Assembly (NCBI GenBank): GCA_964010765.1
Contig: CAXGMD010000066.1
Span: forward strand, 1 to 19,584
DNA: 19,584 nt
Source: an uncultured bacterium
Lineage (GTDB): Bacteria; SAR324; NAC60-12
Direction: 5' to 3'
Shown: one piece after another, positions 7,939 to 12,688 of the stretch
How positions within the stretch are numbered: the stretch's first letter is position 1
How the letters are laid out: each line of letters starts with the position of its first letter
Position numbers and translations under genes: made by a program
The notes under the pieces: generated by a model
What the model was told of the DNA's origin: nothing
Databases searched by the model: none
Seen by the model: the letters and a program-made list of their open reading frames with translations, nothing else

Positions 7939-8571
7939 TCAATGACAGCCACCATATTCAATGCGGCCATCTGGCATTACGGTGTTGCAGAGGCGGGAGC
8001 CGAGCATCAGCGCAAAGTGCATTTCTGCGCCTTGTAGGTCAGCACCATCTAAATCAGCTTCCCGTAAGTCGACTCGATAACAGACAGCTTCCCTCAGGTT
8101 GGCTCCTCGTAACTCGGCTCGACGTAAATCCGCGTAACTGAGGTTGGCTTTCTCCAGATTGACGTTCATCATCACTGAGCTCTGCAACTCTGCTCTCTCC
8201 AGGTTGACTGCACGCATGTCGGCTTCATTCAGATCAACATCTTCCAAATCTGCACCCTGAAGCTGTGCTCCCTGCATCGTTGTAAAATCAAGGTTCGCCT
8301 CCCAAAGATGCGCTCCGCTCAAGTTCGCTCCTTCCAACTGGGCTCCTTCCAAATTGACTTTTTCCATCTTGGCCCCAACCAGATTGACCCCACGGAGATC
8401 TGCGTAACTCAGATCGGCTCGGCTCAAGTTGGCATAGCTCAAATCTGCATCGACCAGATCTGCCCCATTCAATTCAGCCCCTCGCAGATCCACACCAGAC
8501 AGTTGACCTTCCGGACAAGCGTTTGTCTCACGCAATTGCCGCAAATGAGCGGGATCAAAGTTTTCTTCCAT
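7939..8571 (-). CDS. Pentapeptide repeat protein A
   Basis: Long A(D/N)Lxx array, N-cap FDPAHLRQLRETNACPEGQL, C-cap LCNTVMPDG…GGC. SD-like GGAG just upstream. Confidence 0.95.
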   Translation of the reverse strand: MEENFDPAHLRQLRETNACPEGQLSGVDLRGAELNGADLVDADLSYANLSRADLSYADLRGVNLVGAKMEKVNLEGAQLEGANLSGAHLWEANLDFTTMQGAQLQGADLEDVDLNEADMRAVNLERAELQSSVMMNVNLEKANLSYADLRRAELRGANLREAVCYRVDLREADLDGADLQGAEMHFALMLGSRLCNTVMPDGRIEYGGCH

Positions 8572-9029: not shown

Positions 9030-9497
9030 ATGGCTAACTACAATCCACTTCACTTTCAACAACTGACAGAAACCAAGTCGAGCCCCATCTGCAGCCTATC
9101 CGGCGCCGTATTGAGCGGTTTAGATCTGTTGGGAGCTGATCTGCGTTATGGCACTCTAGAAGGAGCAGACTTGAGTGGCTCTAATCTAGCAGACGCAAAA
9201 CTAACAACAGCAAATCTGGGTAGGGCAAAACTGAGTGAAGCACGTTTGGCAGGAGCAGATCTCTATGGAGCTAATCTGGAAGAGGCAGACCTGCGAGGAG
9301 CAGACCTACGGGGAGCGGACTTACGCCGAAGCAAACTAGCCCAAGCAGACCTACGGGGAGCAGACCTACGAGGAGCAGACCTAAGGGAAGCGGATTTGTT
9401 TGGAGCGGATTTTCGTGATGCTGATTTGCGAGAAGCCAATCTAGAGATGACCGCCTTCGGTGGACAACGTTTCTGTGACTACATCAATGTCGCTTAG
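9030..9497 (+). CDS. Pentapeptide repeat protein B (C-terminus possibly degenerate)
   Basis: GGAG SD (9019-9022), N-cap YNPLHFQQLTETKSSPICSL and ADLRG repeats. Paralog of 7939-8571. Confidence 0.9.
   Translation: MANYNPLHFQQLTETKSSPICSLSGAVLSGLDLLGADLRYGTLEGADLSGSNLADAKLTTANLGRAKLSEARLAGADLYGANLEEADLRGADLRGADLRRSKLAQADLRGADLRGADLREADLFGADFRDADLREANLEMTAFGGQRFCDYINVA
9285..9404 (+). repeat. 15-bp tandem repeat, consensus GCAGACCTACGGGGA (encodes ADLRG)
   Basis: Near-identical units start at 9285, 9300, 9345, 9360 and 9375. Units at 9300 and 9345 are identical. Diverged units start at 9315, 9330 and 9390. Confidence 0.85.
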
Positions 9498-9560
9498 GGC
9501 ACTGAAAACAATTCTCTACATCCAACGCTTCTTCCGCCAGCTAAGACAACACACCCTACG

Positions 9561-9584
9561 TTGGCTCCTCACAGTGGGGGCCGA
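9561..9584 (+). terminator. Possible hairpin between convergent pentapeptide B and selenoprotein genes
   Basis: TTGGCTCCT-CACAGT-GGGGGCCGA stem with three G·U pairs and no clear U-tract. Confidence 0.3.
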
Positions 9585-9592
9585 CCACAAAG

Positions 9593-9808
9593 CTACTTCA
9601 ACAAGTCTACAATCTCTTGATCCTCTGGAAACCTACCTTCATTCAACTTTGAGAAGAGCAACTGATCTTCAGCGAAGACCTCAAAAGCCCCTCTTCCGCC
9701 AGCTACCAGTTGCGTTTCTAGTTGCAACTGTTCCTTCACTGTAGCAGCCAACCTGGCTGCTCGGGGTTGGTAGTTTCAAACTCTGCAGTATTCAATACGA
9801 ATCGTCAT
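9593..9808 (-). CDS. SelT/SelW/SelH (Rdx family) selenoprotein, 71 aa, in-frame UGA read as Sec at codon 11
   Basis: SD AGGAGA (9814-9819), ATG 9808, TAG 9593-9595. Translation MTIRIEYCRVUNYQPRAARLAATVKEQLQLETQLVAGGRGAFEVFAEDQLLFSKLNEGRFPEDQEIVDLLK shows Rdx hallmarks: IEYCxxU.Y..RA, G..G.FEV and LFSK…GRFP. SECIS lies just downstream of the UGA (9776-9778). Confidence 0.95.
9743..9761 (-). promoter_or_regulatory. Bacterial SECIS element
   Basis: mRNA reads UGA-AACUACCAACCCCG-AGCAGCCA-GGU-UGGCUGCU: a perfect 8-bp stem starting 14 nt after the UGA, with a G-led apical loop. Confidence 0.88.
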
Positions 9809-9899
9809 TTTTGTCTCCTGATCGTTTCATTGGATTCATTAGCTAGCTTAGTCGATTGAGAGCCGAAAGACCAAGCTGACTCTTGCATCTGGTATCGAA

Positions 9900-10904
9900 T
9901 CAATCACCCGGCAGGGGAACCTCTGGACCAAGCATGCCTTCTTTTCGAAGTTCCAACCAAAGATCACGCGGAATTTCTAGCTCAAATAACCACAAGTTTT
10001 CCTGCCACTCCTCACGACTCCGTACACCGGTCAATACCGTGGCAACTGCTGGGTGACCGAGCGGAAACTGTAGAGCAGCAGCCTTGAGAGGCACACCATG
10101 TCGTTGACAGATCACTTCCATCGCCAAAGCCCGATCAATCAAGTCCTGGGGAGCCTCAACGTAGTTGTAGGTGGTTCCAGGGACTGGATTGGCTAAAATC
10201 CCACTATTGTAGACACCGCCAATCACAATTGAGGTCCCGTGCTTCAGACACTTGGGGAGCAATTCAGCCAACGAACTTTGATCCAGCAGGGTATAGCGTC
10301 CTGCGAGTAAAAAGCAGTCAAAGTCCCCATGATCAAGGAACTTGGACAGCATCTCCCATTGATTCATTCCTGCGGAAACAGCCTTGATACTACCCTCCTC
10401 ACGCAAACGATTCAGGGCCTGATAGGCTCCTAGCACCGCATCCGTGAAGTGTTCGTCAGAATCATGGATATGCAGAATGTCTACTGCGTCCACTCCAAGA
10501 CGCTGAAGGCTCTCCTCATGGGAGCGCAGCACTCCATCGTAAGAGAAATCAAAAATGAAGCGCTTGTCTGGATTCGCCAGGTAGAACGGCTGTCTGTCGC
10601 CGTAAAGTTCAGTACCTTCACGGACACCTGGACGAATCAACCGACCAACTTTGGTAGAAATCAGTGGACGACTGGACAATTGCGGTAGGCTACGGCCGAT
10701 CCGTTCTTCAGAGAGACCATATCCATAGAAAGGGGCTGTGTCCACATAGTTAATCCCTGAATTCAGAGCCTCTTCAATTGTTAGGAGTGCTTCTTCTTCA
10801 GAGACTTTATTCAGCAAGTTGCCTAAAGGCGCTGCGCCCAGAGAGAGTTGTGACACACTCAGTCCACTGGATCCCAGGGCATTGGTTTCAAATGGATTGG
10901 GCAT
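9900..10904 (-). CDS. Aldo/keto reductase (D-threo-aldose/L-fucose dehydrogenase-like)
   Basis: LGAAPLGNL, DTAPFYGYGLSE, STKVGR, DFSYDG, LHIHD, LLAGRYTLLDQ and GGVYNSGIL. Confidence 0.93.
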   Translation of the reverse strand: MPNPFETNALGSSGLSVSQLSLGAAPLGNLLNKVSEEEALLTIEEALNSGINYVDTAPFYGYGLSEERIGRSLPQLSSRPLISTKVGRLIRPGVREGTELYGDRQPFYLANPDKRFIFDFSYDGVLRSHEESLQRLGVDAVDILHIHDSDEHFTDAVLGAYQALNRLREEGSIKAVSAGMNQWEMLSKFLDHGDFDCFLLAGRYTLLDQSSLAELLPKCLKHGTSIVIGGVYNSGILANPVPGTTYNYVEAPQDLIDRALAMEVICQRHGVPLKAAALQFPLGHPAVATVLTGVRSREEWQENLWLFELEIPRDLWLELRKEGMLGPEVPLPGD

Positions 10905-11680: not shown

Positions 11681-12688
11681 TTAGACGACGTCGTCGCCAG
11701 CTCCAGCCATGATGAGTTTGCCTTCCTCTTCAAGCTTCTTTACAACCTTGATGATCTTTTGTTGGGCACCTTCAACGTCTGCGACTTTAACTGGCCCCAT
11801 GTTCTCCAGATCATCGTTGAGCATCTCGGCTGCCCTGGTGGACATTGAGCTCAGAATCAACTCCTTGACCGCATCACTGGCGGTCTTCAAGGCCATCGCT
11901 AGATCAGCTTTATCCACATCCTTCAAGACTGTCTGCATCTGCTTGCTATCAATCAGCGTCAAATCTTCGAAGGTGAACATCAATTCACGAATTTGCTCAG
12001 CTAGATCAGGATTCGATTCCTCGATAGTGGAGAGAATTCGCGTCTCGGACGCCTTGTCAATTGCGTTAAGGATCTCGGCCACTGGTGCAACTCCACCGAC
12101 TTTGGTCACCATGCTACCTGCCTGTTTCATTTCATCTGTTAGCACTTCGTTGAGTTCATTGACCACCCCTGGAGGAATACTGTCCAGAGAAGCGATTCGA
12201 TAAACAACATCTGCCTGGAGATTTTCCGGAAGAGTTCGCAGGACAGTAGCTGCCTGGTCCACATCTGACAAGTAAGAAATGATTAAGGCAATGGTCTGCG
12301 GGTGTTCAGTCCGGATGTAGTTGGAAATCATCACGGGATCAATAAATTTAAGCGCCTCTAGCCCCATGTCTTCGGTCTGGGCACTCATTGATGCGCCAAG
12401 CTCTTTCGCTTTGTCTGGACCCAAAGCCTTGCTCAAGGCATTCTTGATGAAGTCTGGAGAAGCCATCAGGTCTCCCCCTCCATCACTCATCACAGACTGT
12501 CTATAAAACTCTTCAAGAACCTGATCCAATTCCTCGGACGAGATATCGTTGAAGCGAGTCATGTAGTAGCCAACCTGCTGAATCTCAGCTTCTTCGAGGT
12601 TCTTCATGACATCGGCAGCCCCCTCTTCGCCCAAGGCTAGCAATAGGATCGCCGCTTTCTTGGGACCCGTTAGTTTGCCAACCGCCAT
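11681..12688 (-). CDS. fliG: Flagellar motor switch protein FliG
   Basis: KKAAILLLALGEE, EHPQTIA, GG linker, MFTFEDL and torque helix MSTRAAEMLNDDL. AAGGAG SD. Confidence 0.96.
   Translation of the reverse strand: MAVGKLTGPKKAAILLLALGEEGAADVMKNLEEAEIQQVGYYMTRFNDISSEELDQVLEEFYRQSVMSDGGGDLMASPDFIKNALSKALGPDKAKELGASMSAQTEDMGLEALKFIDPVMISNYIRTEHPQTIALIISYLSDVDQAATVLRTLPENLQADVVYRIASLDSIPPGVVNELNEVLTDEMKQAGSMVTKVGGVAPVAEILNAIDKASETRILSTIEESNPDLAEQIRELMFTFEDLTLIDSKQMQTVLKDVDKADLAMALKTASDAVKELILSSMSTRAAEMLNDDLENMGPVKVADVEGAQQKIIKVVKKLEEEGKLIMAGAGDDVV

Follow-up and report, generated by a model that had tools for sequence, protein, structure and literature searches.

SelW-like proteins have been catalogued as a bacterial selenoprotein family since at least 2005 (PMC1088965), and the family is tabulated as PF10262 with a CxxU motif (PMC9312934). 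It was the most abundant family of the Sargasso Sea selenoproteome, with 48 genes (PMC1088965), and again the top family in the GOS data, where 427 Sec forms were counted versus 56 Cys forms (PMC2398784). SelW-like genes were reported in several deltaproteobacteria and clostridia (PMC1794560), and in Epsilonproteobacteria they were missed by annotation (PMC4607533). A 2026 review describes the SelW-like family as "predicted with high confidence", not bench-verified and functionally largely uncharacterised (PMC13188914). Our literature search, which covered titles and abstract openings and few subscription journals, found no bench study of a bacterial SelW-like member, and no substrate for a bacterial Rdx/SelW member was found in the literature searched. 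For SAR324 combined with selenoprotein, the one match in that search was PMC5029168, whose main text tabulates two SAR324 genomes and nowhere mentions SelW.

The gene described here lies in a 19,584-nt stretch of SAR324 DNA (the window) and shares with the prokaryotic SelW-like proteins of the Sargasso and GOS sets its size, the CxxU and GxFEV motifs, the in-frame UGA, an intragenic bSECIS and the marine setting; it differs from them in nothing of kind. It is thus an ordinary gene, a further copy in the selenoprotein family that is the most abundant one known from sea-water bacteria. The SAR324 selW is a real gene for a small redox protein, and its apparent stop codon is almost certainly read as Sec.

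Gene structure and family assignment

The sequence-only reading had described a Shine-Dalgarno sequence, an ATG, ten codons ending in C-R-V, a TGA, 60 further sense codons and a TAG, and each of these elements was found on the minus strand of the window:

9593..9808, minus strand: selW-like gene of the Rdx family, encoding a putative selenoprotein in 71 codons and closed by TAG (PF10262, TIGR02174 and structure model)
9815..9819, minus strand: Shine-Dalgarno-like AGGAG, 6 nt before the ATG at 9808..9806, read from the sequence
9785..9787, minus strand: TGC codon of Cys8, the first CxxU residue and the sole Cys codon of the gene
9776..9778, minus strand: in-frame UGA at codon 11, presumed Sec codon
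9677..9691, minus strand: G-A-F-E-V, residues 40-44, the GxFE(I/V) signature of the Rdx family
9595..9593, minus strand: stop codon TAG, ending the 60 sense codons 3' of the TGA

The first ten codons read MTIRIEYCRV and are followed by the TGA, giving the CxxU motif C8-R-V-U11. GGAG is kept upstream of the ATG in all seven genus loci, and Cys8, G40 and F42 are invariant in 22 of 22 aligned homologues. A strain in public run X1 carries a 24-nt insertion at window position 9819, on the border of the ribosome-binding site of selW, and the gap between selW and the upstream aldo/keto reductase gene is 23-24 nt longer in congeners than in the studied genome.

As the earlier reading had also pointed out, the table-11 ORF list (ORFs of at least 60 aa) misses the gene and shows at this position the antisense frame 9460..9744 on the plus strand only. 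Being the sole listed ORF at the locus, that frame could be taken for the real gene, with the SelW-like frame as an incidental by-product. It gave no NCBIfam match, it is broken by internal stops in four of six genus relatives, and it has no conserved sequence beyond the genus, which leaves this explanation an exceedingly small chance. The open run behind the TGA is itself no evidence for a gene, since at least 60 open codons follow 10,257 of the 172,727 TGA triplets in the genome (5.9%). A chance origin is excluded by the family match across the TGA, by the same codon-11 TGA in 30 of 30 loci of relatives and by a conserved hairpin.

For profile and PDB searches the read-through protein was written with C in place of U. 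The profile search suggested by the sequence-only reading placed the translation above both curated cut-offs: PF10262 (Rdx) matched residues 2-70 with 70.4 bits (cut-off 22.6, E = 1.5e-19) and TIGR02174 (CXXU_selWTH) matched with 62.9 bits (cut-off 34.2). The best-scoring model over the whole length was NF041051 SelTWH_Campy, which also matched 22 of 22 aligned SAR324 homologues; its 86.1 bits fall under the 88-bit equivalog cut-off, and by this sequence score the selW product is close kin of that subfamily, not a member. No other Rdx gene over the cut-off was found in the genome. By the family definition in PMC10650576, Rdx proteins carry a consensus tGxFE(I/V), which corresponds here to RGAFEV at residues 39-44 in the C-terminal part. 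The N-terminal CxxU/CxxC motif that follows the first strand in the family is represented by C8-R-V-U11.

An AlphaFold2 model built with 22 homologues as input had a mean pLDDT of 96.1, with a strand at residues 3-8 and a helix at residues 14-28, and this predicted structure has the thioredoxin-like fold expected of the Rdx family. In a Foldseek search against the PDB the model matched 2fa8, a bacterial SelW-related structure, with TM 0.91 and an rmsd of 1.1 A. All 22 structure matches listed at E <= 0.001 were SelW-related or MIEN1 chains; the overall ranking was bacterial SelW-related proteins, then MIEN1, mouse SelW and, further down, thioredoxins. The solved Cys-form bacterial Rdx proteins, from Agrobacterium (Atu0228, 2fa8), Vibrio (2p0g), Bordetella (2ojl), Streptomyces (SAV_2001, 3dex) and Pseudomonas (2obk, 2oka), have the same fold as the SAR324 SelW model (TM 0.82-0.91, rmsd 1.1-2.8 A). 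They differ from it in having Cys in place of Sec, in their sequence (24-32% identity) and in their length, with 77-86 residues solved and ~105 deposited versus 71 in SAR324 SelW. A sequence search of the PDB matched four entries; in the two alignments shown, the UGA column is Cys in 3dex (CTQC), whose CxxC aligns with the CxxU of SAR324 SelW, and in 2ljk (CEPC). Mammalian SELENOW (2npb) and MIEN1/C17orf37 (2ljk; 38% identity to SAR324 SelW for MIEN1) share the Rdx fold and the CxxU/CxxC motif with TM 0.68-0.79. The SECIS of mammalian SELENOW is a eukaryotic element in the 3'-UTR, whereas that of SAR324 selW is bacterial and intragenic.

The SECIS hairpin and the selenocysteine machinery

A hairpin that the sequence-only reading had not described is present downstream of the UGA:

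9743..9761, minus strand: bacterial SECIS hairpin, 8-bp stem and 3-nt loop GGU at 9753..9751

Its loop lies 22 nt after the UGA and its energy is -13.2 kcal/mol. The bSECIS model given in PMC13188914 has a 3-9 nt loop, a G in the first two loop positions, a spacing of 16-37 nt and an energy of at most -7.5 kcal/mol, and the selW hairpin agrees with all four of these constraints. The loop G was present in 30 of 30 SAR324-order loci and, among the matches listed, in all 28 GTDB-wide loci that have the motif; the codon of which it is the second base reads Arg, Ser or Gly in different genomes. Over 28 distinct sequences, 87.1% of the stem cells were paired, compared with 73.7% after shuffling and at most 53.1% when the stem was slid along the alignment. 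The stem covariation score for the same sequences was 0.396; shuffling gave 0.138 and sliding no more than 0.145. Both shuffle comparisons are inflated by the relatedness of the sequences. Four pairs covary, and in three of them (alignment columns 18-36, 21-33 and 24-30) each partner is the third base of a codon; columns 21-33 switch between AU (13) and GC (12), and columns 18-36 show four Watson-Crick types. In 12 of the 28 distinct sequences one particular stem pair is lost, and folds of 59-111 nt were only mildly stable relative to shuffles (z -1.3 to -2.0). The covariation at silent positions, together with a loop G that is kept while its codon changes between Arg, Ser and Gly, points to a constraint on the RNA. 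The positional covariation is stronger evidence for a SECIS than the shuffle test.

The genome (3.86 Mb, 92% complete) bears out the earlier proposal that the organism decodes UGA as Sec with selA, selB, selC and selD encoded elsewhere. The search proposed there for selABD and tRNA-Sec located selA (contig C39, 514.8 bits), selB (C52, 366.7 bits) and selD (C141, 378.4 bits), each over its curated cut-off, and a selC tRNA-Sec with UCA anticodon (C1, 60.1 bits by Rfam, with ARAGORN in agreement). The four genes lie on four contigs, none of them the selW contig. The selD gene has an in-frame TGA of its own (KTCG-TGA) followed by a hairpin.

Genome-wide reassignment of UGA to Trp, Gly or Cys would explain the read-through with no part for selenium, and the Cys found at this column in distant homologues is in line with it. 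Against such a code change, TGA is the commonest stop and closes 1,199 of the 2,207 open frames, non-genes included, that reach 250 codons; in addition, prfB (RF2) is present over its cut-off, the only UCA-anticodon tRNA found is of the Sec type, and 12 of the 30 homologues themselves end in TGA. UGA is a normal stop elsewhere in this genome, and we consider reassignment extremely improbable. Recoding of the selW codon 11 as Sec is the reading we retain; judged from the machinery, the hairpin and the conservation, there is very little doubt that Sec would be inserted there.

A PrdB-like gene and a gene with a peroxiredoxin (Prx) domain are further in-frame-UGA genes of the genome. They come from a crude genome-wide SECIS scan that gave 455 candidates, 64 after an overlap filter and mostly noise, three of which were scanned against families. 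An in-frame TGA and a hairpin were seen in the PrdB-like gene (G000:C1:20366-21166, plus strand) and in a 59-codon membrane-protein gene (G000:C90:1234-1410, plus strand). The Prx domain belongs to an apparent three-part fusion that runs off its contig end (G000:C118:7226-8554, plus strand, the same as L093:127-1455): an N-terminal domain gave no Pfam match, the PrxQ/BCP-like domain (PF00578, 106 bits) contains a TxxU motif whose U is an in-frame TGA, with a G-loop hairpin behind it, and the C-terminal region is weakly similar to the SiaA protein phosphatase. Judged by its domains, the fusion could be a selenium-based peroxide-sensing phosphatase. Related TGA-containing Prx domains in shorter frames were found in 5 of 40 relatives (E <= 1e-30). 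A tRNA-Pyl(CUA) called by ARAGORN (G000:C64:16896-16980, minus strand) was rejected as spurious, its cloverleaf being poorly paired.

Conservation and genomic context

We searched 41 genomes: the organism's own, 8 of the same genus, 16 more of the family and 16 of the order. Homologues of selW were found in 32 of them, and all 33 matches contained exactly one TGA; one genome (G021) has two selW-like matches (C146 and C184), each with its single TGA. Thirty loci were retrieved (28 by tblastn and 2 by motif), 7 from the genus and 23 from elsewhere in the SAR324 order, spanning two families and protein identities of 39-94%. The sequence-only reading had proposed an alignment of homologues at codon 11 and had named a lack of conservation 3' of the UGA as a refuting result. 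All 30 loci have the TGA as codon 11, preceded by a start codon at a distance of exactly ten codons and followed by an open frame of 60-77 codons. The pN/pS ratio of codons 12-71 within the genus was ~0.32, from few and non-independent differences. No Cys version of selW was seen among the homologues searched in the order (41 genomes). A scan across GTDB, biased by the query's own peptides, gave at least 29 loci, four of them again from the same genus; among the matches listed, 28 of 29 carry TGA in a CxxU motif, in one case in a truncated locus, and the remaining one is a weak match that lacks the motif. A close named homologue, from a single-cell genome of the SAR324 cluster, is 92% identical, and on that ground the host is taken as SAR324.

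The alignment bore the proposal out, with TGA in all 30 order loci and in at least 28 GTDB-wide, and Cys in 3dex and 2ljk. These data also bear on the explanation that codon 11 is a nonsense mutation, or a sequencing or assembly error. With the standard code the gene yields a 10-residue peptide, and an exact look-up in a collection of 15 billion proteins returned no match, although the C-for-U query is blind to records that carry U; exact look-ups of three sequences were all without a match. Against this stand the same TGA in 30 of 30 loci with the open frame behind it, the complete Sec machinery and the contigs of three public runs (X1, X5 and X15), which span codon 11 with the TGA unchanged, all differences falling at other positions. 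A decayed or misread gene is so improbable that we set it aside in favour of a functional selenoprotein gene. Three RNA libraries gave contigs that cover selW (of the 23 listed runs, 4 were examined), which is compatible with its transcription; in X1 and X3 the contig depth is higher over selW, a quantity that cannot rank genes or show strand.

The selB gene was detected in 37 of the 41 genomes. It is present in 29 of 31 relatives with selW, the two exceptions being 75% and 73% complete, and in 7 of 9 relatives without selW, in which selW is either dispensable or unassembled. Two of the latter belong to the same genus and have selB: in G008 the 4-kb selW stretch falls between two contig ends, and in G001 the only matches to the region were fliG paralogues. 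Two single-contig genomes of the order (G027:C1 and G032:C1, 1.6-1.7 Mb) retain selB and a Sec-form selW.

The immediate neighbours of selW in the window are as follows:

9900..10904, minus strand: aldo/keto reductase gene (PF00248), upstream neighbour, 91 nt before selW
9030..9497, plus strand: pentapeptide-repeat gene (PF00805), downstream neighbour, convergent, genus-level synteny only

In all seven genus loci selW lies 91-119 nt downstream of the aldo/keto reductase gene and convergent with the pentapeptide-repeat gene. An operon of selW with the aldo/keto reductase was considered and rejected: their adjacency holds in 7 of 7 genus loci but in none of the 23 other SAR324-order loci, and it is treated as local synteny. 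Neighbour families were scanned for 50 of 246 neighbour ORFs, taken as cluster representatives and nearest neighbours. Outside the genus, the gene divergent from selW in 13 of 23 loci encodes an HD-domain protein whose similarity to dGTP triphosphohydrolases is weak and stays below cut-off; these loci come from both of the families sampled (L032-L035, L037-L039, L041, L042, L044, L046, L047 and L051). In 9 of 23, rpsU is convergent on selW. In 3 of 23 a gene for a flavoprotein disulfide reductase (PF07992/PF02852) follows selW on the same strand:

L032:1-1278, same strand as selW: flavoprotein disulfide reductase
L033:1-993, same strand as selW: flavoprotein disulfide reductase
L035:1-864, same strand as selW: flavoprotein disulfide reductase

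From its placement, this enzyme is possibly the reductant of SelW in those genera. The neighbours change between genera and no constant one was found among the loci compared; the genomic context therefore names no substrate. Linkage of selW to sel genes was likewise rejected, as only two genomes, G009 and G020 of a single genus, have selB ~3 kb from selW, and there unrelated genes intervene; in G032 the distance is ~14 kb. A Prx/SelW gene pairing was reported in ten GOS reads (PMC2398784). It was unseen in the 50 of 246 neighbour ORFs scanned, a weak negative because the ORF caller would cut a Sec-containing Prx at its TGA. A promoter and terminator scan gave counts at shuffle level and nothing convincing beside selW.

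Two other features of the window may be recorded here. Divergent pentapeptide-repeat genes lie by selW (7939..8571, minus strand; 9030..9497, plus strand), and the HetL, Qnr, MfpA and PipB NCBIfam models all scored them far below cut-off. A fliG gene (11681..12688, minus strand) is present with no other flagellar genes in the window, and further fliG-like copies were seen in G005 (three) and G008 (two).

Proposed function

The claim of the earlier reading, that this is a SelW/Rdx-family CxxU selenoprotein recoded at an in-frame UGA, is upheld by the family cut-offs, the codon-11 TGA in 30 of 30 loci, the machinery and the SECIS; of the three outcomes that it had named as refuting, none was observed. 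Taken as a whole, with Sec recoding and a redox role together, a SelW-like selenoprotein is a highly probable reading of the gene. Translation would start at the ATG at 9808, and the hairpin with its loop G 22 nt downstream of the UGA would recruit SelB with Sec-tRNA(UCA) for insertion of Sec at codon 11. The product would be a soluble protein of 71 residues with a minimal thioredoxin-like Rdx fold, in which the predicted loop between strand 1 and helix 1 carries Cys8-x-x-Sec11.

CxxU oxidoreductases cycle between a selenol/thiol form and an internal selenenylsulfide. From family and motif, the SelW product is probably a cytosolic thiol/selenol oxidoreductase. The Sec11 selenolate, as the presumed attacking residue, would attack an oxidised Cys of a partner protein (a disulfide, a sulfenic acid or a thiolated Cys), Cys8 would resolve the mixed bond to leave an internal Cys-Sec selenenylsulfide, and an NADPH-driven system would re-reduce it. 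Thioredoxin reductase (TrxB, G000:C1:74896-75798) is present over its cut-off and five thioredoxin-domain matches were found in the genome; this thioredoxin reductase/thioredoxin pair is the most plausible candidate for the recycling reductant, an assignment we make tentatively. Mammalian SELENOW has been reported to partner with glutathione and with 14-3-3 proteins, which are confined to eukaryotes (PMC10650576). None of the nine genomes of the genus searched yielded a canonical glutathione synthetase, and across all 41 genomes there was no match over cut-off to TIGR01380 and none to PF04262; the studied genome has a GCS2-type ligase. Glutathione as a partner of SAR324 SelW is doubtful.

The protein might instead be a true selenoprotein with a task other than catalytic disulfide reduction: it might bind or pass on selenium or a soft metal or, as a switch for redox or selenium status, bind a partner protein. 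The retention of Sec in the retrieved homologues of the order and in at least 28 GTDB-wide loci with the motif speaks for such a role, as do the few Cys versions of SelW-like proteins reported in Sec-using bacteria (PMC1794560), the binding of 14-3-3 proteins by mammalian SELENOW through a mechanism described as unresolved (PMC10650576) and the title of 2obk, "putative Se binding protein", which is the depositor's label only. Set against it, CxxU on a thioredoxin-like fold is the standard arrangement of an oxidoreductase, and selW is not clustered with sel genes apart from the selB ~3 kb away in two genomes of one genus. We consider such a role unlikely and prefer the thiol/selenol oxidoreductase.

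A wider picture for SAR324 may be drawn from synteny, in which SelW would be near-core, always in the Sec form and independent of glutathione, and would exert redox control over the neighbouring HD-domain, dNTP-hydrolase-like enzyme. Its near-core part would follow from the presence of selW in 32 of 41 genomes, always with Sec, including the two single-contig genomes of 1.6-1.7 Mb; its partnership part would follow from the back-to-back placement with the HD-domain gene in 13 of 23 loci outside the genus, taken as ancestral. We regard this picture as quite improbable; if it were true, the HD-domain enzyme would give bacterial Rdx proteins their first defined target.

The role of the ocean's most abundant selenoprotein family is no more testable through the SAR324 copy than through the hundreds already catalogued. 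The short length, single Cys and clean SECIS of SAR324 selW make it a convenient bait for substrate trapping. Its recovery regains a gene that standard callers drop and further fills in the view of SAR324 as a lineage that uses Sec.
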